From Alphaproteobacteria bacterium (GTDB taxonomy: Bacteria > Pseudomonadota > Alphaproteobacteria > UBA828), in contig CBDCGS010000011.1 in NCBI GenBank assembly GCA_965216915.1, positions 195,404-259,403 of the forward strand: 64,000 bases of DNA, written 5' to 3'. Positions 738 through 46,004 of this stretch are shown in pieces; position 1 is the stretch's first letter; every line of letters starts with the position of its first letter. The notes beneath the pieces are model-generated. The model had not been told where the DNA came from. It saw only the letters and a list, made by a program, of their open reading frames with translations, and searched no databases. A program made the translations under genes and the position numbers.

Positions 738-840
738 GCATGTCCCGTTCACTTCATGCTCACGGAACATGTTCTCTCGCATTGGAATTGACGCAAATAC
801 GTCGTCGCAGGTGATCCCACCTGCTTGGGATTTGCTCTAG
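738..840 (+). repeat. RIME/REP-like intergenic repeat, copy 1 (about 100 bp, contains the CAGGTGatccCACCTG hairpin)
   Basis: About 88% identical to 45904-46004 and to the reverse complement of 15368-15468. Its terminal CTAG supplies the TAG stop of the minus-strand gene 837..2168. It begins 20 bp after the GNAT stop codon. Confidence 0.6.
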
Positions 841-2168
841 AACGGGATCTTCGCCACCCGATCCCGCCGTGCGGTGCGCCGATCGATCATGCGATGGAGC
901 GGCCCGAGCAGCACGCTGACGTGGCTCATTGGGCCGCGCCAGCGGAGCGCGCGTGGCAGCTTGATCTCGACGCTCAACTCCTCCGGTGGCGTCCCCGCCG
1001 CATGGGCGGCGAGCTGGGTGCCCATGGCGGTTGCGGTCGGAATGCCGCGTCCGGAGTAGCCGGTCGCCGCCGTCACGCCGGACGCCAGCTCGTAGACGTG
1101 AGGGATCGTCTCCGGCACCACATCCATGTTGCCGTGCCAGAAATAGGGCCAGTCGAGCTTGCCGAGCTGGGGGTAGAGCCAGGCCATGCGCTCGCTCATG
1201 ATGCGGCGCGTGAAGGCGGCGTCGCGCCCGAGCCGCGCCTCGACCATGCCGCCGGTCACGATGCGGCCCTGGGCGAGCTTGAAATAGTGCATGTCGCCCG
1301 CGCTATCGACCAGGTGATTGTCGCTCGGCAACACGGACTTCACGACGTTGTCGTTGAGCGGCGCGCTGGCGAGGCCGAACGCGACCATGACCGAATAGGT
1401 GCGCCGGAGCGCGGGCCACAGGTCGCCCGAATAGGCGCCGGTGCCGACCACCACACGATCTGCGAGGAGCGCGCCCTGCGTCGTCTTGGCGCGCCACTTG
1501 CCGCCCTCCTTCTCGAGCGCGACGACCGGCGAGCGGGTGTAGATCGCCGCACCCTCGCGGAGCGCCGCCCGAGCCAAACCGCGCGCGTAGCCGAGCGGGT
1601 CGAGGTGGCCGGCCTCCGGGTGAATCCAGCCGCCATGGTAGCGGTCGGTGCCGGTCATCGCCCCGACCTCGGCCTTGTCCAACACGCGGCACGCCTTGCC
1701 GAGCGCAGCGAAGGCCTGGCAACGCCGCTCGAGATGCGCCATCGCGCTCGGCGCATGCGCGACGTTGAGGAGCCCGTTCTGCTTCGCCTCGCAGTCGATT
1801 TCGTAATCGCGGATCAGATCGAACACGAGGGTCGCGGCGTCGGCCTGCATGCGGACGAACCGCTCGCCCCATTTCGGGCCCAGCACGGCCTCCACCTCCT
1901 CGGGTTCGCGATAAAGGAAGGTCGGCGTGCAATGGCCGAGATTGCGCCCCGATCCGCCATTGCCGACCTCCGCCGCCTCGACCACCGCGACATCAATCCC
2001 GCGCTTCGCAAGATGAAGCGCGGTCGAGAGCCCGGTATAGCCGCCGCCGATCACTGCGACATCGACGCGGCGCGTCTCGTCCAGCGGCACGGTGTCGGGT
2101 GCCGGCGCGGCGGTCGCGGCCCAAAGCGCCTCCGAGGCGGGTGCATTGCGAAGGGAGCCACGTGCCAT
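837..2168 (-). CDS. FAD-dependent oxidoreductase (DadA / PuuB-like amine oxidoreductase family)
   Basis: 443 aa. N-terminal VAVIGGGYTGLSTAL dinucleotide-binding motif. Length and motifs are typical of DAO-family flavoproteins. Confidence 0.8.
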   Translation of the reverse strand: MARGSLRNAPASEALWAATAAPAPDTVPLDETRRVDVAVIGGGYTGLSTALHLAKRGIDVAVVEAAEVGNGGSGRNLGHCTPTFLYREPEEVEAVLGPKWGERFVRMQADAATLVFDLIRDYEIDCEAKQNGLLNVAHAPSAMAHLERRCQAFAALGKACRVLDKAEVGAMTGTDRYHGGWIHPEAGHLDPLGYARGLARAALREGAAIYTRSPVVALEKEGGKWRAKTTQGALLADRVVVGTGAYSGDLWPALRRTYSVMVAFGLASAPLNDNVVKSVLPSDNHLVDSAGDMHYFKLAQGRIVTGGMVEARLGRDAAFTRRIMSERMAWLYPQLGKLDWPYFWHGNMDVVPETIPHVYELASGVTAATGYSGRGIPTATAMGTQLAAHAAGTPPEELSVEIKLPRALRWRGPMSHVSVLLGPLHRMIDRRTARRDRVAKIPF

Positions 2169-2430
2169 GCCCCATCCTAGCGCGCGGCGTGGCCGATGGC
2201 GCGGGGTGAATCGCTCCGGTGGCGATCATGGGCCGCGCTTTGCCACGATTGAGGCGGAGGGGCCCCATGGCAGCTGATCGCGGCTTTGCCTCTACCAGGG
2301 GCTCTCCGCGCCGATCCCGCGGCGCGCACGTCCTATTGGTATTGAGGCGGCACCTCTCGGGTTGCGGTCCGGCGGTTCATCCACGCCCCGCGCGTGGCAT
2401 AGTTGGCGGAGTCCGAAGTCCCGACGGGTG

Positions 2431-3201
2431 ATGCCCATGGGCTCGACCAACGCAGACCGGATCCGCGCCCTGCTCAAGGGGATCGAAACCGGCGATCCCG
2501 CGGCCGTCGCCGTGATCAGCCCGGACACATACATTCAACACAACCCTCAGACCCATGAGGGACGCGAGGGTCTCGCCGCCCTCTTCCAACGGCTTTCGAA
2601 GAGCAATCCCCGGGTCAACGTCGTGCGCGCCTTCGAGGACGGCGACCACGTCTTCGCACACACCGAGTACGACTTTGCCACGCGCCGCATCGGCTTCGAG
2701 GTCTTTCGCTTCGAGAATGGCCTGGCCGTCGAGCACTGGGACAACATTCAGCCGCGGCGGGGGCCGAACCCGTCCGGCCATTCCATGGTCGACGGGCCGA
2801 CCGAGGCCGCCGATCTGGCGCGGACCGAGGCCAATCGCGAGCTGGTGCGCGGCTTCGTCGAACGCGTTCTGGTTCGGCGACGCCTCGACACGCTGGCGCA
2901 GGACATCGATGGCGCGCGCTTCACCCAGCACAATCCGCACATCGAAGATGGTGTGGCGGCGCTTCGGGCAGCCCTGGACGCGACGTCGGACGATGGCAGA
3001 AGGATCACATATGACCGCCTGCACCGCGTCCTGGCGCAAGGGAATTTCGTTCTCGCGGTGAGCGAGGGGTCTTTGGCGGGCGTGCACAGCGCGTTCTACG
3101 ACCTTTTCCGCGTCGCCGACGGCAAGATCGTCGAACATTGGGATACCGTCGAGGCGGTCCCGCCGCGGAGCGCGTGGCAGAACGACAACGGCAAATTCTG
3201 A
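2431..3201 (+). CDS. SnoaL-like / NTF2-like domain protein (two tandem domains)
   Basis: Two repeated modules of about 125 aa with the same pattern (GDP..V..DF.QHNP). Start chosen at the internal MPMG because the upstream part of the ORF is low-complexity. Function assignment is weak. Confidence 0.55.
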   Translation: MPMGSTNADRIRALLKGIETGDPAAVAVISPDTYIQHNPQTHEGREGLAALFQRLSKSNPRVNVVRAFEDGDHVFAHTEYDFATRRIGFEVFRFENGLAVEHWDNIQPRRGPNPSGHSMVDGPTEAADLARTEANRELVRGFVERVLVRRRLDTLAQDIDGARFTQHNPHIEDGVAALRAALDATSDDGRRITYDRLHRVLAQGNFVLAVSEGSLAGVHSAFYDLFRVADGKIVEHWDTVEAVPPRSAWQNDNGKF

Positions 3202-3211
3202 GCCCGTCCGA

Positions 3212-3240
3212 TCCGGCCCCTCTTTGGCCGGGCCGGTCGC
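3212..3240. terminator. GC-rich hairpin between convergent genes (possible bidirectional terminator)
   Basis: CCGGCCCctctttGGCCGGGCCGG lies between the stop at 3201 (+) and the stop at 3250 (-). No strong T-tract. Confidence 0.3.
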
Positions 3241-3249
3241 GGCCTGTTG

Positions 3250-4197
3250 CTAATTCTCGAAGAAATAGCGGCGGTCGACCCAATGTGGCGGCTCGTTGGC
3301 CCAGTTGGGTGCCTGCAAGGCGCCGAGCGCGGCGCGAAGCGCGGCGTACACGGCCTCGGGCGCAAGGTCCGTGCCGGCGACGATTTCTCCAAGGCGCTCG
3401 ATAATCACACCGGGCGCGGTCTCGGGCATGAAGACCGTGCGCGGGATCGGACGTCGGGTGACCAGCGCCTCGGCCCAGATCTCGTAGGCCGGCAGTTGCG
3501 CAAGCGCGATCCTGTCTGCGAGGGAGGTCAGCTCCTCCTCGGTGTAGCTGCCCGAGATCGTCAAGCTGCCACCGCAGATCGGCTCTCGCACGATCGCGTT
3601 GATGACGACCGTGTCGCCGATCACGGCCGCGATGGACCGTCCGACCGCCTCCGTCGTCACCGCGCACAGGCGCTCCCGATCACCACCGCCCAGCGAGATG
3701 AAAAGCTCCGGCTCGCCCAACATGTTGAAGCCGACGTCCGTCTGGGGCGTCTCGTCCAGCACCATCGCGGGCTCGGTCAGGAGCCATTGATCCGTTGTGC
3801 GCCCGTCCTCGTCACTGACGCATGCTTGCGGCCCGTGCGCCTGCGCACGACATGCGGCCTCGCTGCCGACCGAGACGACCCGGCGGAACTCCAGAGCGCC
3901 TGCGCCGGCGCTCCCCGGACTTAAGATCGAGCGCACCGTCTCGATATCTTCGCCCGCTCCAACCTCGACGGCGACCCGCCCGCAGGCGATGTCCGCCTTG
4001 GCTGCAGCGCGAATGCCATGACGGTCCAAGCGGTCGAGCAGCGCCTCGGAGAGCGCGTCCAATTGCGTGGGCGGGCCGTCGACCGCCAACACGAACTCGA
4101 CGGTCTCGAGCCCCTCGGACGCGTGGCTGGGGGCATCGTTGAGGGCGGCGGCGAGCAGGCCGGCCAAGGTTGTGGCGGTGATGAGGCGCGTCAGCAT
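3250..4197 (-). CDS. hypothetical secreted protein
   Basis: Start taken at MLTRLITATTLAGLLAAALN, a signal-peptide-like N-terminus. The longer ORF upstream is Arg-rich junk. No recognisable catalytic motif. Confidence 0.5.
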   Translation of the reverse strand: MLTRLITATTLAGLLAAALNDAPSHASEGLETVEFVLAVDGPPTQLDALSEALLDRLDRHGIRAAAKADIACGRVAVEVGAGEDIETVRSILSPGSAGAGALEFRRVVSVGSEAACRAQAHGPQACVSDEDGRTTDQWLLTEPAMVLDETPQTDVGFNMLGEPELFISLGGGDRERLCAVTTEAVGRSIAAVIGDTVVINAIVREPICGGSLTISGSYTEEELTSLADRIALAQLPAYEIWAEALVTRRPIPRTVFMPETAPGVIIERLGEIVAGTDLAPEAVYAALRAALGALQAPNWANEPPHWVDRRYFFEN

Positions 4198-4322
4198 CGG
4201 GCTCTCTCTCGTTTGCCGACGGCCGCACAACCCGCAACCGCCGCGCTGTTCAAGGCGTGCTTTGCGCCGATCATAGGCTGGTACACTTGCGCTCGTCCCG
4301 CACCAAGGGCGCGAGGCTTGTG

Positions 4323-5432
4323 ATGACCCAGAGACACGCAGCCGAGGGCGCAACCTACCGCGTCGGTCTGATCGGCAATTGCTGCACCCATGGTGAGTTC
4401 GTGGCGGCCGCGCTCAAAGAGGAGCCGCGCGCCAGGATCGTCACCGCGTTCGAAAACGATCCGCGGCGCGCCCCCGCGCTCGCCGAGGCCACGGGGTGCG
4501 CACTAACCGAGTCACCGGACGCGATCGTCGACGACCCCGCAATTGACATCGTCGCGCTCGCCTGCTCGCCGCACGAAAAGGCGGACTGGTGCGAGCGCGC
4601 GGCGCGTGCAGGGAAGCACATCTTCCTCAACAAGCCGATGTGCGAGAGCTTGGACGCGGCGCGCCGCATCCAACGGGTGATCGATGACACCGGCGTCAAG
4701 CTGGTCCACGACATCACCGTGTTTCGCTTTCACCCGATCGGGGCGAAGCTTCTCGACGCCGTGCGCGCGGGCACCTATGGCCCACCCCTCAGCTACATGA
4801 GCAGCTGGGGCATGACGTTCTCGCCCGATTTTCCGCTAGCGACCGTCTGGCCCGAGCGGCTCGACCCGCCGGCCGAGACTGGCGGGGGCGAGCTCACCAA
4901 CCTCGGATGCTACGCGATCGACTACATGGTCGCGCTCTGGGGCGCGCCGGTGCGCGTTCAGGCCAAGCTGATGCGACGCTGGCAGCCCTATGCCGCGGCA
5001 GGTGTCGAGAGCTTTGGCCAGATCATTGCGGATTACGGGGATTTCTACGCCGTGCTGGCCGCCGGCAAGCAGCCAATCGCGGGCCGTCCCACGATGGACG
5101 TCGCGGCCGCGCTCAAGCCCGAGGCCTGGCACAGCGTGATCGAGATCCGCTTCGAGGCGCACAACATCACCGCGCTGCCCTTCGCCGACACGGTGTTCGT
5201 CGACGGGCGTCCCATCGCGGCGGCCGCGTTTCTCGACGGCCACGAGACGCGCAGCCCGTTTGTTCAGCTGGTGGATGCAATCGAGACCGGCGCGGGGCCG
5301 GAGAGCGACGCCGCGACGGCGTGCCTCGGCGTGGAGGTGCTGATGGCCGCCTACCGCTCGGCACAAGCGGATGGCGCGCCGGTTGCGCTGCCGCTCGACG
5401 ACGGCACCAACCCCTTGGTCGCGCCGGATTGA
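4323..5432 (+). CDS. Gfo/Idh/MocA family oxidoreductase
   Basis: N-terminal Rossmann motif YRVGLIGNCCTHG and an EKP-like motif (CSPHEKAD). Start at MTQRH. Confidence 0.75.
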   Translation: MTQRHAAEGATYRVGLIGNCCTHGEFVAAALKEEPRARIVTAFENDPRRAPALAEATGCALTESPDAIVDDPAIDIVALACSPHEKADWCERAARAGKHIFLNKPMCESLDAARRIQRVIDDTGVKLVHDITVFRFHPIGAKLLDAVRAGTYGPPLSYMSSWGMTFSPDFPLATVWPERLDPPAETGGGELTNLGCYAIDYMVALWGAPVRVQAKLMRRWQPYAAAGVESFGQIIADYGDFYAVLAAGKQPIAGRPTMDVAAALKPEAWHSVIEIRFEAHNITALPFADTVFVDGRPIAAAAFLDGHETRSPFVQLVDAIETGAGPESDAATACLGVEVLMAAYRSAQADGAPVALPLDDGTNPLVAPD

Positions 5433-5435
5433 CAC

Positions 5436-5954
5436 TCACGACCGCTCGGCTCGCGTATCGTGCGCCTGCGTCGCAAGAAGAACGGTGCGGAGCGCGCGGG
5501 CGAGCGCCGCCGTCTCGGCCTCGCTGAGTTCGCCGGTCACCGCCGTCTCGAGCGCGTTGAATTGCGGAAACAGGCGGTGGATCGTGGCCTTGCCCCTGGC
5601 CGTCAGGCGGATCACGACACGCCGTCCGTCGGTGCGGTGCGGGCGACGCTCGGTCAAGCCATGTCCCTCGAGGGTCTTGAGAACCCCCGTCAGCGTGCCC
5701 TTGGTGATGCCCGCCTCCTCGGCGAGCTCGCCCGGCTCGCGCGGCCCCCAGACCCAGAGCACCCAAAGCACGGTGAAGCCGGAGAAGGAGAGACCGTGGC
5801 GGCTGAGCACGCGGCGCTCGGCGAGGTTGCGGAACGCGTTCGCGACGCGGAACACGTTGGAGATCGCAGACAACGCACCGACGTCGATGTCGAGGGCTTC
5901 GACGCGCGCGAGGGCGGCGCGCTCGGCGTCTGGAACGGCGGCGCGCTTGGCCAC
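5436..5954 (-). CDS. MarR family transcriptional regulator
   Basis: 172 aa. Winged-helix core (GLSFSGFTVLWVL...LTERRPHRTDGRRVVIRLT). Confidence 0.8.
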   Translation of the reverse strand: MAKRAAVPDAERAALARVEALDIDVGALSAISNVFRVANAFRNLAERRVLSRHGLSFSGFTVLWVLWVWGPREPGELAEEAGITKGTLTGVLKTLEGHGLTERRPHRTDGRRVVIRLTARGKATIHRLFPQFNALETAVTGELSEAETAALARALRTVLLATQAHDTRAERS

Positions 5955-5958
5955 GGCG

Positions 5959-6759
5959 TCAGATCGGCGCGAGCAGGGTGCGGCGCAGCGTGGTGCCGCT
6001 ACGCCAGGAGAACGCCACCTCGCGCCAGTAGCCCGCGATCAGCTCGCGCGGTGCAAGGCGCTCCAGCTCCTCCGCGGGCGAGGTGCCGAGAGTGAGCGTG
6101 AAGGTGCCGGTGAAGGAGCGGCCGATCTCCACGTCATAGCCGGCCATGGTGACGAACTCGTCGAGGCTGTCGGTGCCGTCCCCCTCGATCGCGGGCATCC
6201 AGCGGTTGTGCAGCATGGGGAGCGCATTGACGAAACCCGCATCCTCGCTCGGCCCCGTGATCTCGAAGGCGGCCTCGAAGAGCCGGCGATCGTAGGCGGC
6301 AAGCGTCGCACCGAAGCGGCCGCCGACCTCGAGCCGCGGCCCCGCGCGGCCGACGCGCACCGGCCGCGTCAGGAAGATCGAGCCGAGCTTCTTCGGATAG
6401 CCCTGATGCTGGCCGCGCACCATCGCATAGTCGGTGTCGACCCAGATGTAGACGCAGCGCGAATAGTGCTTGCCCTCGAACTGGCAGCGCACGACGACGA
6501 ACACCTCCTTGTATTGGGCACGCACGGGATCCAGCAGCTCCGCGAAGCTGTCGGAGCAGGCCTGCCAATCGGCCCAGACGATTGCGACGGCGCCCGGGTC
6601 GTCGTCCGCCGGCGTCACGCCGTCTGGCAAAAGCTCAGCGACCGCCGCCGGATCGGTGCGGTATTCGAGCGTCAGCATGTCGCCCGAATAGTGCCAGGGC
6701 GGCGGCGGCAGGAGCGAGGCCTTGCCCGTCGCCGACCGTGGAAACATGAAGCCTTTCAT
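5959..6759 (-). CDS. acetoacetate decarboxylase (ADC) family protein
   Basis: 266 aa. PPPPWHYSGDMLTLEYRTD N-terminus typical of the ADC superfamily. Co-directional with the MarR gene, 4 bp away. Confidence 0.7.
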   Translation of the reverse strand: MKGFMFPRSATGKASLLPPPPWHYSGDMLTLEYRTDPAAVAELLPDGVTPADDDPGAVAIVWADWQACSDSFAELLDPVRAQYKEVFVVVRCQFEGKHYSRCVYIWVDTDYAMVRGQHQGYPKKLGSIFLTRPVRVGRAGPRLEVGGRFGATLAAYDRRLFEAAFEITGPSEDAGFVNALPMLHNRWMPAIEGDGTDSLDEFVTMAGYDVEIGRSFTGTFTLTLGTSPAEELERLAPRELIAGYWREVAFSWRSGTTLRRTLLAPI

Positions 6760-6812
6760 CGCCCGTCCTCCCGCGCGGCGCTTCGCTTGTCAGTGAGCCT
6801 GCGAATAAATAT

Positions 6813-6828
6813 CGTTTGGGCCCAAACG
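6813..6828. promoter_or_regulatory. 16-bp perfect palindrome CGTTTGGGCCCAAACG in a divergent promoter region
   Basis: Lies between the ADC/MarR operon (minus) and the FAH-family gene (plus). A related box AGTTTGGACCCGAACG occurs at 10594-10609. Confidence 0.3.
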
Positions 6829-6849
6829 CATCAACTGGGCGGGGCGGCG

Positions 6850-7731: not shown

Positions 7732-7799
7732 TCCCGACGCCCGCTATCGCGCCCGCCGCTAATCGGACGGGCAGGACGGTTCTCAGGAGGCGCTTAGCT

Positions 7800-9260: not shown

Positions 9261-9277
9261 GGCGGCTCTCCTTGGGA

Positions 9278-10552: not shown

Positions 10553-10631
10553 CGTTCTCGCTCGCTCGATTGCATGGCTGGTGCCCGCATGATAGTTTGG
10601 ACCCGAACGATTTGTCCAGCGGGGGAGATGC

Positions 10632-11516: not shown

Positions 11517-11523
11517 GCGGGCG

Positions 11524-11964: not shown

Positions 11965-12074
11965 GCGCCGTCTCCTCTCGTTGGTCCTGGTGGCTCTTGG
12001 CCAGCACGTGGGGGCGGTTTTACCCTAAGCCCGCGGCATCCGTAAGGCATATCGGCCGCGCGCCAGCGCACGCG

Positions 12075-13182: not shown

Positions 13183-13299
13183 CCCCGCCGCCTCTTCCGC
13201 GCGAAGACGCGCTCGTCCGCGCCGCGCTCCAGTGCTAGGCTCCCGCCCCAGAGCGCCGCGAGCGCGGCGCATCGAATGTCGCATGTGAGGGAGGGATTC

Positions 13300-15129
13300 A
13301 TGGCGTGGCAGGGACAGTTATTGCGGGTCGATCTCACGGCGGGCACCTGTGTCGGTGAACCCCTCAACTCCGCGTGGGCGGCGCAGTATCTGGGCCAGCG
13401 CGGGCTCGCGACCAAATACCTTGCGGAGGAGATGGACCCGAAGGCGGATCCACTCTCGCCGGAGAACAAGCTGATCTTTGCGACCGGCCCCTTGACAGGG
13501 ACCGGCGCGCCGACCGGCGGGCGCTACTCGGTCATCACGAAGGGGCCCCTCACCAATGCCATCGCCTGCTCCAATTCCGGCGGCTACTTCGGCGGCGAGC
13601 TGAAGCTCGCCGGCTGGGACATGGTCATCTTCGAGGGCAAGGCGAAGAAGCCCGTCTATCTCTACATCAAGGACGACCACGCCGTGTTGCTGCCCGCCAA
13701 GGGCTTCATCTGGGGCAAGTCGGTGTGGGATACTGAGCCGCTGCTCAAGGCGCGCCATCAGGACCCTGCGATCAAGGTCGCCTCGATTGGCCGCTCGGGC
13801 GAAACCCTAGTGCGCTACGCCTGCGTCGTGAACGACATGGATCGCGCGGCCGGACGCTCGGGCGTCGGTGCCGTCATGGGCTCGAAGAACCTCAAGGCGA
13901 TCGCCGTGCGCGGCACCAAGGGCGTCTCGGTGAATGACCCGAAGGCCTTCATGGCGGCGATCGCCCACGCCAATTCGGTCCTGCAGCCGAGCGAGGCCCG
14001 CGCCGGGCTCGCGAAAACCGGCACACTTTCGATGATCGATGTCACCCAGTCGTTCGGCAGCCTGCCTACGCGCAATAATCGGGACATCCAGTTCGAGGGC
14101 GCGAACAAGCTCGGCCCGGCCGCGATGGCGGCGCGCCGCCGCACCGACGGCGAAGCGAACCTCATGACCAACAAGGCTTGCTTCGGCTGCACGATCGGCT
14201 GCGGCCGCGTCGCGAAGATGGATCCCGGCCATTTCGCCATCGGGGAAAACGAGCGCTACCGCAAGCCCTCCGGCGGGCTCGAGTATGAATCGGCCTATGC
14301 GCTCGGGCCCATGGTCGGTGTCGACGACATCGAGGCCGCGACCTACGCCAACTTCATTTGCAACGAGCAGGGCATGGACCCGATCTCGTTCGGCGCGACC
14401 GTCTCGGCTGCCATGGAGCTTTATGAGACCGGCGCGATCTCGGACAAGGAGACCGGCGGCATCGCCTACCGGTTCGGCTCGGCGGAGGCGCTTTGCACGG
14501 CCGCCGACCAGGCCGGCACCGGCGAGGGCTTCGGCGCGGACCTCGGGCTTGGCGCGAAACGGCTCTGCGAAAAATATGGCCATCCCGAGTTCGCCATGGT
14601 CGCCAAGGGACAGGAGTTCCCCGGCTATGACGGGCGCTCGATGCAAGGCATGGCTCTCGCCTATGCCACCAGCAACCGCGGTGCCTGCCACCTGCGGGCC
14701 GACCCCTACGAGGACGATTTCTCCGGCGGCAAGCTGAAGGGCAAGGCCGAGATCGTGAAAACGTCGCAGGATCAGGTCGCTGCCATCGATTCGACCGGCC
14801 TTTGCCTCTTCCCGATGGGCGCGTGGGGCTTCCAGGAGGTCTCGAGCCTCGTCGACGCGGCGTGCGACGGCGATTGGAGCGTCGAGAATTTGCGCCTCGT
14901 CGGCGAGCGTATCTGGAATCTCGAGCGCCAATTCAATCTGAACGCCGGGTTCACTGCGGCGGACGACACGTTGCCCGATCGCATCCTCAAAGACGCGGCG
15001 AAGAGCGGCACGGGCAAGGGCAGCGTCGCCCAGCTCGACAAGATGCTGCCGCAATATTACGAGCTTCGAGGTTGGACGTCCGGCGGCGAGCCGACGCCGG
15101 AGACGCTCTCCCGCCTCGGCCTCGGATGA
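13300..15129 (+). CDS. aldehyde:ferredoxin oxidoreductase (tungsten/molybdenum-pterin AOR family)
   Basis: About 610 aa with the characteristic AOR N-terminus (GQLLRVDLT...KYLAEEM...LIFATGPLTGTGAPTGGRYSVITKGPLT), internal Cys residues for the 4Fe-4S cluster (CFGCTIGCGR) and C-terminal AOR domains 2/3. Confidence 0.85.
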   Translation: MAWQGQLLRVDLTAGTCVGEPLNSAWAAQYLGQRGLATKYLAEEMDPKADPLSPENKLIFATGPLTGTGAPTGGRYSVITKGPLTNAIACSNSGGYFGGELKLAGWDMVIFEGKAKKPVYLYIKDDHAVLLPAKGFIWGKSVWDTEPLLKARHQDPAIKVASIGRSGETLVRYACVVNDMDRAAGRSGVGAVMGSKNLKAIAVRGTKGVSVNDPKAFMAAIAHANSVLQPSEARAGLAKTGTLSMIDVTQSFGSLPTRNNRDIQFEGANKLGPAAMAARRRTDGEANLMTNKACFGCTIGCGRVAKMDPGHFAIGENERYRKPSGGLEYESAYALGPMVGVDDIEAATYANFICNEQGMDPISFGATVSAAMELYETGAISDKETGGIAYRFGSAEALCTAADQAGTGEGFGADLGLGAKRLCEKYGHPEFAMVAKGQEFPGYDGRSMQGMALAYATSNRGACHLRADPYEDDFSGGKLKGKAEIVKTSQDQVAAIDSTGLCLFPMGAWGFQEVSSLVDAACDGDWSVENLRLVGERIWNLERQFNLNAGFTAADDTLPDRILKDAAKSGTGKGSVAQLDKMLPQYYELRGWTSGGEPTPETLSRLGLG

Positions 15130-15371
15130 AGATCGCGGTCGAGCTCATCGCCATCGAGCGGCCGGGCATCACGGAGGCCGACAAAAACAGGGTGATCGAG
15201 CTGGCGGACGGCACGCCCGTGGCGGACGCCGTCGACGCCCTCCGCCTCGGCGACACGAGCGCGCTGGTGACGATGGTCAACGGCGAGCTTGTGCACCGCG
15301 ACGACCGCGCCGCCCAGCGCCTCGCCGACGGCGACACACTCATTGTGTGTCGCGCGATCAAGGGTGGCTAG
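15126..15371 (+). CDS. MoaD/ThiS family sulfur-carrier-like protein
   Basis: 81 aa ending in GG (CRAIKGG*). Its start overlaps the AOR stop (ATGA), indicating translational coupling. Confidence 0.7.
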   Translation: MKIAVELIAIERPGITEADKNRVIELADGTPVADAVDALRLGDTSALVTMVNGELVHRDDRAAQRLADGDTLIVCRAIKGG

Positions 15372-15468
15372 AGCAAATCCCGAGCAGGTGGACCACCTGT
15401 GGCGACGCATTTTCGTCAATGCCAATGAGAGAGCATGTCGCGTGAGCATGCGCGACCATGACATGCTC
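15368..15468 (-). repeat. RIME/REP-like intergenic repeat, copy 3 (inverted orientation)
   Basis: Its reverse complement aligns along the full length with copies 1 and 2 (ctagagcaaatcccgagcaggtgg...cgtgacatgc). Its terminal CTAG supplies the TAG stop of the MoaD-like gene. Confidence 0.6.
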
Positions 15469-15480
15469 TGGCCACGCTCC

Positions 15481-15538
15481 AGATGGACCTGGCTTACACC
15501 ACCGGCGCGAGATGGACTTGGCTTACACCACCGGCGCG
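15481..15538. repeat. tandem direct duplication, 2 x 29 bp (agatggacCtggcttacaccaccggcgcg)
   Basis: Two adjacent near-identical 29-mers with one mismatch. The second copy encodes the C-terminal GAPVV* of the minus-strand gene 15523..15861. Confidence 0.7.
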
Positions 15539-15861
15539 CCATACCCGTAGCTATAGGGCACGGCGCCTGAGAACGCGACGACGTCGCCATGTTCGATCTC
15601 GCGATCGGCGCGAATATCGGCGCCGACCAGCCCCGGCGTGATGTCGCGTCCGTTGACGAGCACCAGGAACAACGCGGCACGCGGGATGTTGAGTTGGTCG
15701 GCAAGCGCGCCGACCGTGGTTCCGGCGGGCAGCGCCATGACGAACCGATCTCCTCGCCCGTTTCCGCGGTGGGACACGCTGTTGAAGAGGCGCACCTCGA
15801 CATCGATCGTGGTGTCGCCGATATTGTGGCCGATTGGTGCAAGATCGGTCGCGTCGCGCAT
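15523..15861 (-). CDS. hypothetical small protein, possibly a MoaD/ThiS-like beta-grasp domain with a Gly/Tyr-rich C-terminal tail
   Basis: 112 aa from MRDATDL. The central hydrophobic pattern (VEVRLF...FVMALPAGTTVGALADQL...LVLVNGRDI...GDVVAFSGA) resembles a beta-grasp fold, but there is no terminal GG. Weak call. Confidence 0.35.
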   Translation of the reverse strand: MRDATDLAPIGHNIGDTTIDVEVRLFNSVSHRGNGRGDRFVMALPAGTTVGALADQLNIPRAALFLVLVNGRDITPGLVGADIRADREIEHGDVVAFSGAVPYSYGYGAPVV

Positions 15862-15913
15862 GACGTCCTCTCCTCCCGGGCTGAACCTCAGGGAGCCTGA
15901 AAAGACATACATT

Positions 15914-32612: not shown

Positions 32613-32695
32613 GGTGGAGCGGGACGGGCCGGGCAGCGCAAGCCACCCATTGACCTCCGCCGAGGGGACGCGCCGCGTGGTACGCCTTTCGCGTG

Positions 32696-32721
32696 TGCAT
32701 GAGTGAACGTGACATGCTCTA
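32696..32721 (-). repeat. truncated fragment of the RIME/REP-like repeat
   Basis: gcatgagtgaacgtgacatgctctag matches the reverse complement of the 5' arm of copy 2 (gcatg[agcatgc]gtgaacgtgacatgc) fused directly to the terminal tctag. Confidence 0.35.
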
Positions 32722-32746
32722 GACACGCCCCAGGGACGCAGCCGCC

Positions 32747-36713: not shown

Positions 36714-36731
36714 GCCGCGCCGCCCGGCATC

Positions 36732-37853: not shown

Positions 37854-37890
37854 CGACAACACGGTGAACAGGAATGAAGGAGAAGAGGAC

Positions 37891-38901: not shown

Positions 38902-39042
38902 CGCATCCTTGCATGTGAAGCGCAGGCTGCCGGCGAGCGCGTTGGTGGGCGCGGCCAGCCATTCGAAGCGCCGCCCGCGCGGTGATCCTGCTATAACATC
39001 ACCAACACCGCCGCGCAGAAACGGCGACCGAGGGAGGGCACC

Positions 39043-41016
39043 ATGACCGATCCCACGCGCGCGATCCGTCTTTACGGCACCGAGGCGCCAACGCCGGAGG
39101 TGCGCGCGGTGCGCGCAGGCGGCCTCTCGGCCGAGCTCGAAGCCGGAAAGCTGCGTTATGTGCGCCGGGGCGGGCACGAGGCATTGCGCGGCCTCGCCTT
39201 CGTGGTCCGTGGCCCTGGCTGGGAGACCTTCGCGCCCACGCTCACGAACCTTTCGGTCGAGGAATCGGGCGGTGGCTTTCGCATTGGCTACGACGCGCGG
39301 ATCGAGGCGGCCTGCGGCACCCTGACCTTCCGCGCCGAGATCGAAGCGGTCGACGAGAGCGGCTTGCGCTTTTCGATCGAGGGCGCGGCGGAAACCGCGT
39401 TCGAGACCGGCCGCACGGGCTTTGTGGTGCTGCATCCCGTGGAGGGCGTGGCCGGTGCACCATGCCGGATCGACCACACCGACGGCACGCACGAAGATAC
39501 CGTGTTTCCCGACCTCGTGATGCCACTACAGCCCTTTTTCGACATTCGCGCGATGCGGCACCAGGTCGCCCCCGGCCTCTGGCTCACCTGCCACCTCGAT
39601 GGCGCCGACCCCTGGGAGACGGAAGACCAGCGCAATTGGACCGATGCCTCCTACAAGACCTACTTTCGGCCGCTCGCCCTCCCCTTCCCCTATACGCTCG
39701 CGGCCGGCGAGCGGTTTTCGCAAACCGCCGAGCTCCGCTTCGAGGGTGCGCCGCCGGCGTCGGGGCCGACGGCGGGCGGCGACGCGATCGCGGTGCGCGT
39801 CGACGGGCCGACGGGTGCCACGATGCCGCTGGTCGGCCTCGGCGTGCAGGCAAGCCATGCCAATGACGGCCTCGACGATCTCGATCTGATCCGCCCGCTC
39901 GGCGCGCATTATCTCGTTTGCCAATTCAATCCGAGCGCCGGCCACGGCGCGGCCGAGCTTGCCGGCTACCGCGACCTCGCGGCGGCGCTTGGGCTCGACG
40001 TCACGCTCGAAATCGTCGTCCCGTGCGAGCGGCCGGTCGCCGACGAGATTGCCGAGGCAGCGGCTGCTGTCGGCGCGGCGGGGCTCACGCCGGCCTCGGT
40101 GATCGTCGAGCAAAAACGCCTCCTCTATTTCACGCTGGAGACGATCGAGGCACTCGGCATACCAAGCTTCGAGGAAACTTATGCCGCCGCGCGCGCGGCC
40201 TTTCCCGGTGTGCGCCTCGGCGGCGGCGTACTCACGAACTTCACCGAGCTCAACCGCAACCACCCCGATCCGGCGCTCTTCGACTATCTGACCCACAACA
40301 CCTGCGCGGTGGTGCACGAGCCCGACGACCGGTCCGTGATGGAGACGCTGCAGTCCCTGCCCTCGATCGTCGCCACCGCGAAATCGTTCGCGGGCGGCAA
40401 GCCCTATCGCCTCGGGCCAAGCGCGATCGGCATGCGCTTCAACCCGTATGGCCCGAGCACGCACGACAATCAGGACAATGGCCGGCACTCGTTCAACCAG
40501 CAGGACCCGCGCCAGCGCAGTCTCCTTGGCGCGGCGTTCACGCTTGGCTACATGGCGCGCGTCGCGCCGCTCGGCATCGAGGCGATCGCCCTCGGCATGC
40601 CCGCCGGAGAGCTTGGCGCGGTGTACCGCAAGATGGGCCACGAGCAGCCATGGTTCGACACGCTCGCCGGCCCGGCCGTGTTTCCGCTCTATCACATCGT
40701 CGCGGGGATGGCGCAGGCATCGGGCGCGGCCCTGCGGACCGCCGAAAGCGACGACCCGACGCGCGTGCTGGCCCTCGCGCACGAGGTCGCGGGCGGCGGG
40801 ACGCGGCTCTGGCTTGCGAACCTGACCCCATCGCCGCAGCGCGTCGAGGTGGCCGGCGTGCCGTCGGAAGCGATGATCGGCGGCCTCGATGAGGACAAGT
40901 TCGTTGCAGCGACCACCGACCCCCTTGCCTTCCAAGCCGCCGAGGGGCAGACGGGCGATCCGCGCCAAATCTCGCTGAAGCCCTTCGGCATCGCTCGGAT
41001 CACCACCGACGGATAA
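39043..41016 (+). CDS. hypothetical protein (657 aa, no recognised family)
   Basis: Long ORF with protein-like amino-acid composition and no obvious low complexity. No motif I can assign. Confidence 0.5.
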   Translation: MTDPTRAIRLYGTEAPTPEVRAVRAGGLSAELEAGKLRYVRRGGHEALRGLAFVVRGPGWETFAPTLTNLSVEESGGGFRIGYDARIEAACGTLTFRAEIEAVDESGLRFSIEGAAETAFETGRTGFVVLHPVEGVAGAPCRIDHTDGTHEDTVFPDLVMPLQPFFDIRAMRHQVAPGLWLTCHLDGADPWETEDQRNWTDASYKTYFRPLALPFPYTLAAGERFSQTAELRFEGAPPASGPTAGGDAIAVRVDGPTGATMPLVGLGVQASHANDGLDDLDLIRPLGAHYLVCQFNPSAGHGAAELAGYRDLAAALGLDVTLEIVVPCERPVADEIAEAAAAVGAAGLTPASVIVEQKRLLYFTLETIEALGIPSFEETYAAARAAFPGVRLGGGVLTNFTELNRNHPDPALFDYLTHNTCAVVHEPDDRSVMETLQSLPSIVATAKSFAGGKPYRLGPSAIGMRFNPYGPSTHDNQDNGRHSFNQQDPRQRSLLGAAFTLGYMARVAPLGIEAIALGMPAGELGAVYRKMGHEQPWFDTLAGPAVFPLYHIVAGMAQASGAALRTAESDDPTRVLALAHEVAGGGTRLWLANLTPSPQRVEVAGVPSEAMIGGLDEDKFVAATTDPLAFQAAEGQTGDPRQISLKPFGIARITTDG

Positions 41017-41054
41017 GCACGCATCACGGCAATCAAAACGAGGAGCGCGACGCC

Positions 41055-41855
41055 ATGGCAGAAGCCACACTCAAGAGCATGACGCAGCACAGCCGACTCA
41101 AGGTCGGCACGTTTCTCGTGGAGTTCTCGACACCGGGGATCGGACAGATTCTCAAGGCCGCAGGCTGCGAATTTGTGCTGCTCGACATGGAGCATTCGGG
41201 ATTCGGCTTCGACACCATCAAGCAAATGCTGCGCTACATGCAGGCAGCCGACATGCCAACGATCGTGCGTGTGCCCTCGCGCGAGTACCACCACGCCGCC
41301 CGCGCGATGGACATGGGCGCGGAGGGCATCATGCTGCCGATGATCGGGTCGGCCAGCGTCGCCAAGGAGCTGCTCGGCTACATCAAGTACGCCCCGCGCG
41401 GCGAGCGTGGCGTTGCGCTACAGATCGCGCATGATCGTTATGCCCCGGGTCCCGTGCTCAAGAAGCTCCGCGATGCCAATCGACGAAGCACGTTCTTCGC
41501 CCTGATCGAGACCGCCGAGGGCGTGGAGAACGCCTTCGAGATTGCCGCGCTCAAAGATGTCGACGCGCTCTGGATCGGCCATTTCGACCTCAGCGTCTCG
41601 ATGGGGATCGCGGGCCAGTTCGATCACCCCGATTTCTTGGCGGCGGTCGATCGCGTCACGAAGGCCGCGAAGAAACACAAGAAGGCGCTGGGCCGTTTGG
41701 TGCCGAACGTCGACGCCGGCGCGACACTCTTCAAGCAAGGCTTCGATTTCATTTGCTATTCGGGCGACGTTTGGCTGTTGCAGCAGGCGATGAGCGCCGG
41801 CGCGGAAGGGCTTCGTGCGCGCTGCAAGGGCGGGCGACCGCGCAAGAGGAGCTGA
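41055..41855 (+). CDS. HpcH/HpaI family aldolase (2-keto-3-deoxy-acid aldolase)
   Basis: 266 aa. The family's characteristic pattern (RVPSREYHHAARAMDMGAEGIMLPMI...DALWIGHFDLS). Confidence 0.8.
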   Translation: MAEATLKSMTQHSRLKVGTFLVEFSTPGIGQILKAAGCEFVLLDMEHSGFGFDTIKQMLRYMQAADMPTIVRVPSREYHHAARAMDMGAEGIMLPMIGSASVAKELLGYIKYAPRGERGVALQIAHDRYAPGPVLKKLRDANRRSTFFALIETAEGVENAFEIAALKDVDALWIGHFDLSVSMGIAGQFDHPDFLAAVDRVTKAAKKHKKALGRLVPNVDAGATLFKQGFDFICYSGDVWLLQQAMSAGAEGLRARCKGGRPRKRS

Positions 41856-41858
41856 CCC

Positions 41859-42911
41859 ATGGCAGACAAATTCCGTGTCGCGCTGTCGAGCGATTTCCTG
41901 CAGTCGGACGGCAAACCAGCGTTTCCCATGTTCGACCGGAGCCCCCTCGATGACGATCCCGACATCGAATGGCGTTATCTCGAGAACCGTGACGGCCCTG
42001 TCGATGCGGAAGAGCTTGCGGACCACGATGCGCTCATCCTGCTTGCCCAGCGCTTCGACCGTGTGAGCGTGCCGGCGGATGGCCGCTTGGCGTTGGTGGC
42101 GCGTTTCGGCGTCGGCTACGATTCGGTGGACGTTCAGGCGTGCACCGACAACGGGATCGCGCTCACGATCACGCCCAACGGGGTGCGCCGCCCCGTCGCG
42201 GTCTCCATCATCACGCTGATGCTCGCCGTCACCGGCAAGCTCTTGATCAAGGACCGGCTGACCCGGCAGGGGCCCGACGGCTTCGCCCAGAAGATCCACC
42301 ATATGGGCGTCGGCATCGTCGGCAAGACCCTGGGCTCGGTCGGCATCGGCAACATCGGCGCCGAGATGTTCCGCCTCGCCAAGCCCTTCGACATGGATTT
42401 CATCGCCTGCGACCCCTATGCCGAGGAGGCGACGGCGGCCGAGCTCGGCGTGCGCTTGGTGGACATGGAGACACTCTGCCGCGAATCGGACATTCTCGCC
42501 GTCAATTGCCTCTACAACGACGAGACCCACCACATCGTCAACGCCGAGCGGATCGCGCTCATGAAACCAACCGCCTACCTGATCAACACCTCGCGCGGCG
42601 GAACCGTGGACCAAAAAGCGCTCACCGCGGCACTCCAAGAGGAGCGCATCGCGGGTGCCGGGCTCGATGTCGTCGACCCCGAGCCGCCGGAGCCCGATGA
42701 CCCCATCCTCACCCTCGGCAATGTGGTGTTTGGCCCGCACGCGCTCTGCTGGACCGACCAGTGCTTCGCCGGGATCGGCGCGGATGACATCAACGCCGCC
42801 TCCGCCGTGAAGCGCGGCGAGCAGCCGGACGGGGTGGTCAACCGCGAGATCCTCGAGAACGCTGCGTGGCGCGCCAAGCTCGAGCGTTATGGCGCACAGT
42901 TCGGGCGCTAG
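41859..42911 (+). CDS. D-isomer-specific 2-hydroxyacid dehydrogenase family protein
   Basis: GxGxxG NAD-binding motif VGIVGKTLGSVGIGNIG, and catalytic His in FGPHALCWT. Confidence 0.85.
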   Translation: MADKFRVALSSDFLQSDGKPAFPMFDRSPLDDDPDIEWRYLENRDGPVDAEELADHDALILLAQRFDRVSVPADGRLALVARFGVGYDSVDVQACTDNGIALTITPNGVRRPVAVSIITLMLAVTGKLLIKDRLTRQGPDGFAQKIHHMGVGIVGKTLGSVGIGNIGAEMFRLAKPFDMDFIACDPYAEEATAAELGVRLVDMETLCRESDILAVNCLYNDETHHIVNAERIALMKPTAYLINTSRGGTVDQKALTAALQEERIAGAGLDVVDPEPPEPDDPILTLGNVVFGPHALCWTDQCFAGIGADDINAASAVKRGEQPDGVVNREILENAAWRAKLERYGAQFGR

Positions 42912-42932
42912 CGGACGACGGGTCGCTCGGGC

Positions 42933-44093
42933 GTGATGGAGGGCTTCAACTTCCCGCCGCCCACGCTGCCGTGCGGGGCGGAGGCGCTGCGCGCGGAGGT
43001 GCGCGCGTTCGCCGCCCGCGTCCGCGCCGAGGACGGCTGGCCGCCGAACTCCGACTTCGGCGCCAGGTTCTCGCCCGAGTTCAGCCGCAAGCTCGGCGCG
43101 CAAGGCTGGATCGGCATGACCTGGCCCAGCGCCTACGGCGGTCACGAGCGGAGCGCGCTGGAGCGCTACGTCGTGATCGAGGAGCTGCTTGCGGCCGGCG
43201 CGCCCGTCTTCGCCCACTGGATCGCCGACCGGCAGAGCGGCCCGCTCCTCATGCGCTATGGCTCCGAGACGCAGTGCCGCGCCATTCTGCCGCGCATCGT
43301 CGCCGGCGAATGCTACTTCGCGATCGGCATGAGCGAGCCGGATTCGGGCTCCGACCTCGCTTCGGTGCGCACGCGCGCCGAGCACACCGCGGACGGCTGG
43401 CGCATCAACGGCACCAAGGTATGGACCAGCAACGCCCATCGCTGCGACTACATGATCGCCCTCTGCCGCACGGGCCCCGCCGGGGATGACCGGCATGGCG
43501 GGCTCAGCCAGTTCCTGATCGACCTGAAGAACGACGGCTTGACGATCAACCCGATCATCAACATCGCGGGCTCCCACGAGTTCAACGAGGTGGTGTTCGT
43601 GGATGTCGAGATCCCGGCCGACCGGCTGATCGGCGACGAGGGGGGCGGCTGGACCCAGGTCACGAGCGAGCTCGCGCTCGAGCGCAGCGGGCCCGAGCGG
43701 TTCCTGAGCACGTTTCACCTGCTGAAGGCGCTCGTCGATGCGGGCGGTCCCAACCCCGATGTGCGGCTCGCCCAGACGATCGGCCGGCTCACCGCCAACC
43801 TCTGGGCGCTCAGGCGCATGTCGCTTTCGGTCGCGGGCATGCTCGACGCGGGCGAGCTTCCCGATGTCGAGGCGGCGATCGTGAAGGACATGGGCAACCG
43901 CTTCGAGCGCGAGGTGATGGAGGCGATCCGCCTCGCCGTCCCGCTCGAGCCGACGCGCGCGGGCGATGCCAATGCGCCGACCGTCGCCAACCAGCTCGCC
44001 ACCGCGCTCCTCTACCTTCCGTCCTACACGCTGCGCGGCGGCACGACGGAGATCATGCGCGGCATCATCGCACGGGGGCTCGGGCTCCGATGA
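42933..44093 (+). CDS. acyl-CoA dehydrogenase family protein
   Basis: ACAD middle beta-barrel and C-terminal helical domain (YFAIGMSEPDSGSDLASV...GTKVWTSN). Confidence 0.85.
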   Translation: MMEGFNFPPPTLPCGAEALRAEVRAFAARVRAEDGWPPNSDFGARFSPEFSRKLGAQGWIGMTWPSAYGGHERSALERYVVIEELLAAGAPVFAHWIADRQSGPLLMRYGSETQCRAILPRIVAGECYFAIGMSEPDSGSDLASVRTRAEHTADGWRINGTKVWTSNAHRCDYMIALCRTGPAGDDRHGGLSQFLIDLKNDGLTINPIINIAGSHEFNEVVFVDVEIPADRLIGDEGGGWTQVTSELALERSGPERFLSTFHLLKALVDAGGPNPDVRLAQTIGRLTANLWALRRMSLSVAGMLDAGELPDVEAAIVKDMGNRFEREVMEAIRLAVPLEPTRAGDANAPTVANQLATALLYLPSYTLRGGTTEIMRGIIARGLGLR

Positions 44094-45073
44094 GCGACAC
44101 CGCGCGCCTGCTCGCCGATGCCGCGGACCGCCTGTTCGGCGAGCATGCCGAGGCGGCGCGCGCGGCCGCTGCGAACGGCGACTGGCCCGAAGACGCGTGG
44201 CGCGCGTTCGAAACGGCTGGACTGGCGCAGGCGCTGCTGCCGGAGGATGCGGGCGGTGCAGATTTGGTCGGCGGGCTCGAGGTGCTTCGCGCCGCCGGAC
44301 GCCACGCCGTCCCACTGCCGACCGCGGAGACGCTCCTGGCGCACCGCCTCCTGGCGCAGGCCGCCATTCCCGCGCCGCCCGGACCGCTGACGTTGGCGTT
44401 GGCCGATCCGGAGGCGCATGGCGCGCGCGCTCGCGTGCCATGGGCGCGAAACGCCGATGCGCTCGTGGTGGTTGATGAGGCGGGCATCGCGCTTGTTCCG
44501 TTGGCCGGCGCATCGATTTCGCCGGCTGACAACGTCGCGGGCGAGCCGCGCGACCGCGTCGACCTCGACGGCCGCCCCGCGGATCGGCGCGCCCTGCCGG
44601 AGGCCCTCGACGTCGCCGCCGTGCGCCGCCTCGCCGCGCTCGGCCGCGCGGCGCAGCTTCGCGGCGCGCTCGAGCGAGTGCTCGCGATGACCGTGCAGTA
44701 CGCCAATGAGCGCAAGCAATTCGGGCGCGCGATCGCGCGTTTCCAGGCGATCCAGCATCACCTCGCGACCATCGCGGGACATGTCGCGGCGAGCGGCGCG
44801 GCCGTCGATGCCGCAGCGGAAAGCGGCGACCCGCTGGCGCTCGCGGCGGCGAAGGCGCGCGCGAGTGAAGCCGCGGGTGAGGTGGCAGCGCTGGCCCACC
44901 AGGTGCACGGCGCCATCGGCTTCACCGAGGAGCACACGCTTCACCATTGGACCAAACGCCTGTGGGCCTGGCGGGAGGAATATGGCAACGAGGCCCATTG
45001 GTGGGCCGAGATTGGTCGTGGCAGGGCCGTTGCGGGTGGCGACGCGCTCTGGCCCTCGATCGTGACCGCCTGA
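44090..45073 (+). CDS. acyl-CoA dehydrogenase family protein (C-terminal-domain-type partner subunit)
   Basis: FGRAIARFQAIQHHLA ACAD C-terminal signature. Start overlaps the previous stop (ATGA), suggesting a two-subunit ACAD. Confidence 0.7.
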   Translation: MSDTARLLADAADRLFGEHAEAARAAAANGDWPEDAWRAFETAGLAQALLPEDAGGADLVGGLEVLRAAGRHAVPLPTAETLLAHRLLAQAAIPAPPGPLTLALADPEAHGARARVPWARNADALVVVDEAGIALVPLAGASISPADNVAGEPRDRVDLDGRPADRRALPEALDVAAVRRLAALGRAAQLRGALERVLAMTVQYANERKQFGRAIARFQAIQHHLATIAGHVAASGAAVDAAAESGDPLALAAAKARASEAAGEVAALAHQVHGAIGFTEEHTLHHWTKRLWAWREEYGNEAHWWAEIGRGRAVAGGDALWPSIVTA

Positions 45074-45110
45074 GCGCGCCACACGCTGTTGAACGAGGGA
45101 GCGAGCGCCC

Positions 45111-45902
45111 ATGGCACCAGACATCCTGCTCGACGTTGCCGACAAGATCGCGACGATCACGCTCAACCGCCCCGAGCGGCGCAACGCCTTCACCCTCGCC
45201 ATGATCGACGCCTGGGCCGACGCCCTCGAGGACTGCCGCGCGCGATCGGATGTTCATGCCGTGGTCGTCACGGGCGCGGGCAAGGCCTTCTGTAGCGGCG
45301 GCGACATTTCCGAGCTGATGCAGGCCCGTCAAGATCTCGGGCCGGTCGACCGCAAGGCCGAAATCGCGGAGCATGTGCACCGCATCCCGCGTGTGCTCGA
45401 CCAGATGGACAAGCCGCTGATCGCCGCGGTGAATGGCGCTGCGATCGGGGCCGGGCTGGACCTTGCGCTCATGGCGGACATTCGGTTCGCGGCCACGTCC
45501 GCCCGCTTCGGCGAGACCTACGTCAAGGTCGGGCTCGCGCCGGGTGCTTGCGGCGCGCATTTTCTGCCGCGCATCGTCGGCACGGCGCGCGCGCTCGAGC
45601 TTCTTTGGACGGGCGACCTCATCGAGGCCGCGGAAGCCGCGCAGATCGGGCTTGTCAACCGCGTCTGGCCCGATGACGAGCTGATCCCGCAAACCATGGA
45701 TTTCGCGGGCCGGCTCGCGACGGGGCCGAGCCAAGCCATCCGCGGCATCAAGCGGCTCGTGCGGGAGGGCCTGCGCGCAGACATGCCAACCAGCCTCGAG
45801 CTCGCATCGTCGCTCTATGGCGTGTTGTCGGCCACCGACGACCATCGCGAGGCCGTGGACGCTTTCCTCGAAAAGCGCGCACCCCGCTTTGCCGGAACCT
45901 AG
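45111..45902 (+). CDS. enoyl-CoA hydratase/isomerase family protein
   Basis: Crotonase fold (ATITLNRPERRNAF...VVVTGAGKAFCSGGDI). Confidence 0.85.
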   Translation: MAPDILLDVADKIATITLNRPERRNAFTLAMIDAWADALEDCRARSDVHAVVVTGAGKAFCSGGDISELMQARQDLGPVDRKAEIAEHVHRIPRVLDQMDKPLIAAVNGAAIGAGLDLALMADIRFAATSARFGETYVKVGLAPGACGAHFLPRIVGTARALELLWTGDLIEAAEAAQIGLVNRVWPDDELIPQTMDFAGRLATGPSQAIRGIKRLVREGLRADMPTSLELASSLYGVLSATDDHREAVDAFLEKRAPRFAGT

Positions 45903-45903
45903 C

Positions 45904-46004
45904 GCATGTCACGTTCACGCATGCTCATGCGAATGCTCTCTCTCATTGGAATTGACGCAAATGCGTCGTCGCAGGTGATGCCACCTGCTCGGGATTTGCT
46001 CTAG
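45904..46004 (+). repeat. RIME/REP-like intergenic repeat, copy 2
   Basis: Begins 2 bp after the enoyl-CoA hydratase stop. It ends in CTAG, 3 bp before the next gene. Contains the CAGGTGatgcCACCTG hairpin. Confidence 0.6.

Follow-up and report, generated by a model that had tools for sequence, protein, structure and literature searches.

Three intergenic copies of a repeat of 104-108 bp were found in a 64,000-nt stretch (here the window) of an alphaproteobacterial genome (GCA_965216915.1, contig CBDCGS010000011.1, positions 195,404 to 259,403). We consider, with a probability of about 0.7, that this element is a non-autonomous, TA-duplicating MITE (miniature inverted-repeat transposable element) of the CIR / Bru-RS type, to which RIME probably also belongs. 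It is best described as a CIR/Bru-RS-type, MITE-like repeat in a Rhodospirillales-like genome, and repeats of this type have been known for decades.

The three full copies were delimited by a covariance model and alignment at 733-840 (+; 100.3 bits, E 1.2e-21), 15368-15471 (-; 82.6 bits, E 1.9e-17) and 45899-46004 (+; 97.5 bits), and are called copies 1, 2 and 3. An earlier note on this DNA had placed three full copies at essentially these positions, each of which the model extends slightly; its estimate of 85-90% identity among them was too high, since the measured pairwise identity is 80-85%. The copies are non-coding, the element being too short to code, and share the same layout, with a 5' hairpin of about 44 nt (module A), a short CTCTTTGGAATTGA-like linker and a 3' hairpin of about 49 nt (module B). 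Based on alignment, model and fold, module A, linker and module B occupy 733-777, 778-791 and 792-840 in copy 1, 15428-15471, 15416-15427 and 15368-15415 in copy 2, and 45899-45941, 45942-45955 and 45956-46004 in copy 3. The two hairpins per copy that the earlier note had described are present, and GGGATTTGCTCTAG is the same in all three. Module A is a hairpin between YTAGAGC and GCTCTA, and module B is a long imperfect hairpin (AGCAAAT..GCAGGTG-loop-CACCTGC..ATTTGCT) with CTAG at its end. A mini-ORF (short open reading frame) in module B (ATG CGT CGT CGC AGG TGA) was ruled out as the ATG is missing from many copies.

The termini are inverted (TA-GAGC...GCTC-TA), and CTAGAGCA and TGCTCTAG are conserved and paired with each other in minimum-free-energy folds. 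As terminal inverted repeats they read (C)TAGAGCA...TGCTCTAG, with 12 of 14 positions matching in copy 1. The GAGC...GCTC core of this copy spans 736-837 and is followed by TA at 838-839, while the TA preceding it has decayed to CA (734-735). The core of copy 2 lies at 15371-15468 with TA at 15369-15370, and that of copy 3 at 45902-46001 with TA on both sides (45900-45901 and 46002-46003).

The element is dispersed well beyond the window. An exact-pattern scan with CACCTGNNNGGGATTTGCTCTAG, covering one genome per prokaryotic species, returned 45 loci from about 13 alphaproteobacterial genomes or metagenome-assembled genomes (MAGs), with record titles naming Rhodospirillales, Rhodospirillaceae, Elstera, MarineAlpha10 and a 'Rhizobiaceae' MAG. 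The covariance model (R1), built from an alignment of 34 copies (A2), added 6 more diverged copies in the flanks of these loci, and the fetched loci together contain more than 50 copies. Just three full copies are visible in 64 kb, as would be expected from chance similarity or from a segmental duplication restricted to the window. This explanation is refuted by the shuffle, pattern-scan and model results and retains practically no probability: a 25-nt core with up to 3 mismatches matches three times in the window and never in 100 shuffles, the three window copies have unrelated flanks, and dozens of copies stand in unrelated contexts and genera. The scan and the model thus bear out the suggestion of a dispersed structured family, made in the earlier note. 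A literature text search for a conserved 13-mer found no mention of it, and BLAST of a window copy against the PLSDB plasmids gave no match.

The family is modular, with A-linker-B, A-B-B, B-B and B-only arrangements as well as forms with a collapsed module A hairpin. Tandem module B arrays (B-B, A-B-B) joined via GCTCTA-TTGGAnTTGA were seen at loci L007, L011, L024, L025, L029, L035 and L040, and collapsed module A forms at L009 and L030 7651-7729; both suggest that elements undergo internal slippage or recombination. In L043, inverted copies at 3064-3170 (-) and 4197-4303 (+) bracket a 1-kb segment with YciI-like and DUF1326-like genes, a composite-transposon-like layout without a transposase. 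An unrelated palindromic repeat of about 60 nt (GATCGAATCATGATTAAATGGAACCGC...GCGGTTCAATTTAATCATGTGAATCCGATCGAT) adjoins the element at L049 2405-2470 (Ga0257122_1020689).

The evidence for mobility comes from orthologous sites in related metagenome loci, fetched via the protein beside one marine copy. At the first site, after a hydratase gene, L056 holds exactly 103 nt more than L057 and L050, corresponding to a 101-nt GAGC...GCTC core plus one TA. The second site reads cgctT-TA-[GAGC...GCTC]-TA-Tatactgg when filled (L056) and cgctC-TA-Tatactgg when empty (L057). Presence/absence polymorphism with duplication of the TA target is thus found at two filled/empty orthologous sites. At the TA of the hydratase stop codon, the insertion in L049 and L013 is opposite in orientation to the one in L056, which indicates independent insertions at equivalent TA dinucleotides. 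The empty sites of L057 (GGCTAGTCG) and L050 (GATTAGTTG) consist of overlapping convergent stop codons sharing the central TA, and both genes keep a TAG after insertion. For copy 3 of the window, three relatives (L047, L137 and L138; 71-74% protein identity) have the same operon with no element, the hydratase gene ending there likewise in TAG, followed by 5-13 nt. The empty junction in L047 lies at 4790-4808. From the filled/empty comparisons we conclude that the element is mobile, duplicates TA and has a YTAR-like site preference.

We suggest that a MITE-like element of about 101 bp, with inverted termini 5'-GAGC(A)...(T)GCTC-3' and two internal hairpin modules, would insert at TA, usually in YTAR context (CTAG, TTAG, CTAA), and duplicate this TA. 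It would be moved in trans, presumably by a TA-duplicating DDE transposase of the IS630/Tc1-mariner type or of the IS5/IS427 type, such as IS711. After insertion it may be co-transcribed in 3' untranslated regions (UTRs) or, as in copy 3, between cistrons, and there its hairpins might influence how mRNA decays or is translated.

A palindromic unit of the REP/BIME type, disseminated by a Y1 transposase (RAYT or IS200/IS605-like), could leave a similar picture. Such an enzyme recognises two subterminal hairpins on single-stranded DNA and inserts beside (C/T)TA without true duplication, and the element does have two subterminal imperfect hairpins with structure-preserving covariation, as well as A-B-B and B-B arrays like those of BIMEs. 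Moreover, YTA on the left and CTA at the right end have TA in common, so the apparent duplication could be two similar cleavage sites. However, the ends are mutually inverted (GAGCA...TGCTC) as in DDE elements, hairpins A and B share no sequence relation, in contrast to the left and right ones of IS200/IS605, and there is no GTAG or CGTC tag. In length (about 105 bp) and in having TA at each terminus, the element agrees with the MITEs ERIC, RUP and Correia (PMC2229807). The fetched loci showed no Y1 gene, although no systematic search for one was made. Altogether, we regard spread by a Y1 transposase as very improbable.

The filled and empty sites give a simple reason for the association of the element with stop codons. 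As the first base of the core is G and the last is C, both junctions give TAG for a gene running towards the element, and copies probably hug stop codons because these termini, placed next to TA, rebuild TAG both ways. Insertion at the TA of a TAG or TAA stop would thus leave the protein unchanged, and even one in the shared CTAG or TTAG of two overlapping convergent stops would change neither. Stops were counted with a coding rule based on the GC content of the three codon positions (GC3 > GC1 > GC2), chosen to exclude antisense shadow ORFs. In about 29 of 49 copies a converging gene takes its stop from the B end, and in about 11 a co-oriented gene takes it from the A end, with both ends used in about 6; at least one end supplies a stop in 35 of the 49. 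In comparison, 22% of the TA and 31% of the YTAR sites outside gene bodies of the window are stop codons (p < 1e-8). The bias towards the B end (29 vs 11, p = 0.006) may be partly a matter of ascertainment: the scan pattern demanded a 3' CTAG and so favours copies selected for a B end that serves as a stop. Copies found independently of the pattern follow the same stop-sharing trend. Target choice and survival of harmless insertions both fit the excess of stops and cannot be separated.

The G...C termini might also be an adaptation that regenerates TAG both ways and uses stop codons as a safe harbour, with module B co-opted by the host as a gene-end signal. In this proposal module B would be a near-invariant hairpin, usually tipped with a CcrM site and recognised by a protein or through methylation, and its use would lie in RNA decay or processing or in chromosome-level functions. 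If true, it would explain the bias of B ends towards gene stops. We find such a co-option doubtful.

The two hairpins differ in their pattern of conservation. In the 34-copy alignment, the stem of module A (helix 1) has compensatory changes in 12 of 16 pairs, and all five measures applied to it are higher than in every one of 500 shuffles and in all slid controls. Helix 2, in module B, is 97% paired and nearly invariant in the same copies, with the apical stem changing from GGTG/CACC to GATG/CATC in some of them and the outer stem flipped in a Sinorhizobium relative. The folds are more stable than those of shuffled sequences (z from -1.6 to -4.5). GANTC, the site of the methyltransferase CcrM, is carried at the module B apex by 24 of the 34 aligned copies, including the Sinorhizobium relative. 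Following the original idea about CIR, the element could then be a host DNA signal tied to CcrM methylation, with GANTC at the tip of module B as its functional part. Module B is indeed the most conserved part of the element, one aligned copy retains the motif with another middle base (GACTC instead of GATTC), and the same layout is described in the CIR literature (PMC2229807). On the other hand, none of the three window copies contains any GANTC, and the motif is absent from that loop in the Brucella and S. fredii relatives examined, so it appears dispensable for persistence. A methylation signal is thus a most improbable explanation.

A main role at the RNA level has also to be weighed, in which a structured module of 3' UTRs or intercistronic regions (a terminator, mRNA stabiliser or processing site), or a small RNA, would be kept by selection and not by transposition. 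Most copies are found at gene 3' ends, genes border on the B end more often than on the A end, and both hairpins are conserved with covariation and fold better than shuffles. Additionally, the Rfam families BASRCI408 and BASRCI27 of Brucella small RNAs contain Bru-RS-like sequence, which indicates that relatives of the element are part of detected transcripts, and BASRCI27 has sub-threshold similarity to one relative. However, no intrinsic terminator (GC-rich hairpin plus U-tract) lies within or abuts any of the three window copies, no sigma-70-like promoter was found in or next to them, and neither the window nor the element matched an Rfam family, be it at the gathering or at the E-value threshold. 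The earlier note had proposed a terminator, an mRNA-stability element or a small RNA; the lack of a U-tract after the hairpin speaks against the first, and the lack of promoter, terminator and Rfam family against a free-standing small RNA, while a role in mRNA stability is possible. One copy (L056, second site) lies between divergent genes and 11 nt upstream of a start codon, the presence/absence polymorphism and the insertion in either orientation at one site show transposition, and DNA palindromes yield apparent covariation even with no RNA function. We consider it unlikely that the RNA is the main level of action, and any RNA-level effect of an inserted element is speculative. BASRCI408, BASRCI27 and BASRCI153 overlap the Bru-RS-like repeat (L135 6846-6990 and 2584-2797, Brucella CP106870.1; L043 4176-4311), and these Rfam families may therefore partly model a repeat element.

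Several observations weigh against a TA-duplicating MITE. The inverted repeat is reliable over only 7-8 terminal bases, and past about 8 nt it differs between subfamilies. At the 5' ends of copies 1 and 2, the TA has decayed to CA. The window copies are no closer to one another than to copies in other genera, which indicates that there was no recent burst in the window. The lineages that provide the filled/empty pairs are relatives whose flanks are 81-85% identical, not the window's own lineage, and the stop and orientation counts use a crude GC3-based gene caller together with a pattern requiring the 3' CTAG. The inner stem of module A varies by compensatory changes, which would fit selection on a hairpin better than plain binding of terminal inverted repeats. 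The part of module B outside the search pattern reaches 86% identity, while the inner stem of module A and the linker have about 60%, and the conservation of module B across genera hints at an extra constraint. Finally, an autonomous element with the same ends was not found in the window, the 45 loci or the PLSDB plasmids; a search for inverted TAGAG ends 0.5-4 kb apart in the window and the fetched loci gave only chance pairs and the inverted pair of L043.

In the window itself, each of the three copies provides, through one of its terminal TAGs, the stop codon of a neighbouring gene. Copy 1 lies between two genes that converge on it. A DAO-family FAD oxidoreductase gene (837-2168, -; PF01266, E 1e-65) has its TAG stop at 837-839 (-), formed by the last base of the element (C837) and the flanking TA. 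On the other side, a GNAT acetyltransferase gene (175-717, +) ends in TGA 18 nt before the copy. A ThiS/MoaD-family gene (15126-15371, +; PF02597) reads into copy 2, and its TAG (15369-15371, +) is composed of the flanking TA and the terminal base of the element; the C-terminal Gly-Gly of the protein is intact immediately before this element-derived stop. The coordinates thus agree with the earlier claim that the terminal CTAG provides the stops of the oxidoreductase (837) and of the MoaD-like gene (15371). A tungsten-type aldehyde:ferredoxin oxidoreductase gene lies upstream of the ThiS/MoaD-family gene, within 13276-15371. The other neighbour of copy 2 is a 129-aa ORF (15523-15912, -). A tandem duplication of 2 x 29 nt in perfect register (96% match; 15481-15538), 10 nt from the 5' end of this copy, contains the TAA stop of the ORF (15523-15525).

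Copy 3 is placed inside an operon, between the stop of an enoyl-CoA hydratase gene (45111-45902, +; TAG at 45900-45902, +, from the flanking TA and the first base of the element) and the start of a PLP-dependent (PALP) gene, TTG at 46007. An element starting 2 bp after a stop and ending 3 bp before the next start had been attributed to copy 2 in the earlier note, and the description is true of the third copy (45900-45902 and 46007), not of copy 2. The insertion moves the PALP start to about 100 nt from the upstream stop, compared with the 5-13 nt of the orthologues. Given this placement, the PALP ribosome-binding site, if there is one, must lie in the 3' arm of module B, and translation may be affected because the TTG is now 2 nt past the element. 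As separate observations on the window (1-64000), CTAG is strongly depleted, with 25 sites against about 195 expected from base composition and 5 of the 25 inside element copies, and TAG seems to end an unusually large share of gene-like ORFs (23 of the 59 that a crude caller gave).

A further remnant, CTAGAGCATGTCACGTTCACTCATGCACACGCGAAAGGC, is found at 32684-32722 (-), in the spacer between an amidohydrolase gene and a Mem_trans transporter gene. The earlier note had interpreted 32696-32721 as a deletion remnant fusing the two ends of the element. Repeat finding (D10, I7), pattern search and the model (12.5 bits, matching only model positions 6-39) identify it instead as a decayed module A standing alone on the minus strand. 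Over the element's first 39 nt it is 82% identical to module A (that of copy 3), its 3' arm is decayed and it folds no better than shuffles. Its resemblance to the 3' end arose only from the inverted-repeat relation between the element's termini.

In genome annotation, the elements are best masked as repeats, and stop codons, as well as the space before a start in the case of copy 3, should be expected inside them. The family ranges from Rhodospirillales-like genomes to Brucella and Sinorhizobium with strong conservation of module B, and is a reasonable system for finding a partner transposase, to whose TA-duplicating nature the filled and empty sites point, or a host factor.

Among known families, the earlier note had pointed to RIME and REP. 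This holds for the intergenic and mosaic character of the repeat and for its relatives in Sinorhizobium and Brucella, but a TA-duplicating MITE of the CIR / Bru-RS kind is the closer fit. REPs are units of 20-40 bp with a GTAG or CGTC tag, linked to RAYT and producing no target duplication. Like REPs and BIMEs, the element has palindromic units in mosaic arrays at gene ends; unlike them, it is about 100 bp long and has CTAG/TA ends, a TA duplication and inverted termini. RIME1 and RIME2, reportedly described by Osteras et al. in 1995, are said to be intergenic mosaics of about 108-109 bp with large palindromes, defined in spacers of the Sinorhizobium pckA-chvI-chvG locus. BLAST of a consensus-like copy against PLSDB gave one weak Sinorhizobium match, which led to rhizobial relatives: one of the same layout on pNGR234b (L046 266-370, 72.8 bits), with further copies in plasmids of Sinorhizobium, Martelella, Nitratireductor and Agrobacterium, and one downstream of pckA in S. 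fredii (L133 447-553, 30.3 bits, E 2e-5). No such element was found in the pckA-chvI and chvI-exoS spacers of the Sinorhizobium strains fetched. Plasmids and chromosomes of this RIME-bearing genus thus carry relatives of identical architecture, and the likeness to RIME itself is one of description only.

The partner of RUP is IS630-Spn1, whereas the partner transposase of the present element was not found. ERIC/IRU, RUP and Correia/NEMIS are of about 100-150 bp, mostly intergenic, with terminal inverted repeats, TA termini and TA duplication, and form stable hairpins when transcribed (PMC2229807). Our element has no sequence relation with them and folds as two independent arms, not as one end-to-end stem.

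In Brucella, Bru-RS1 and Bru-RS2 have been described as palindromic intergenic repeats of 103-106 bp (Halling & Bricker 1994, as cited in PMC10800456, PMC3163539 and PMC2266754). A Bru-RS element downstream of bp26 was reported as an IS711 insertion site (PMC2266754 and its reference 12), and IS711 duplicates TA at YTAR with a preference for Bru-RS elements (PMC3163539, PMC2266754). We have found a 105-nt element 73 nt downstream of bp26 (L135 6826-6930; 29.7 bits, E 1e-5, a moderate similarity) composed of a TTAGAGCG...CGCTCTAA hairpin, a CCTTTGTTTTGA linker and a second hairpin with a ...TCTAG end, which supplies the TAG stop of a converging called gene. Judged by where it lies and how long it is, and not by the published sequence, it is probably the published Bru-RS. 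Its termini and linker agree with those of the window element, but the stems differ, chiefly in module B.

The closest description is that of the Caulobacter repeats CIR1-4, CcrM-associated intergenic repeats (Chen & Shapiro 2003, as summarised in Delihas 2008, PMC2229807, and in PMC10969869). In PMC2229807, CIR are elements of about 110 bp from Caulobacter, Brucella and other alphaproteobacteria, having two inverted-repeat arms with a linker, GANTC at a terminal loop and terminal TA; the target-site duplication is listed there as unknown, the mobility mechanism as unclear and the terminal inverted repeat as absent. Our element is likewise intergenic and alphaproteobacterial, Brucella included, with about 105-110 bp, two arms and a linker, no ORF, 5'-TA-3' termini and, in most aligned family copies (24/34), GANTC at the loop of one arm, which all three window copies have lost. 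It is likened to CIR by description and not by Caulobacter sequences, and differs in showing a TA duplication and short inverted termini. These findings do not overturn current views; the TA duplication and the termini that regenerate stops add modestly to what has been published on such repeats.

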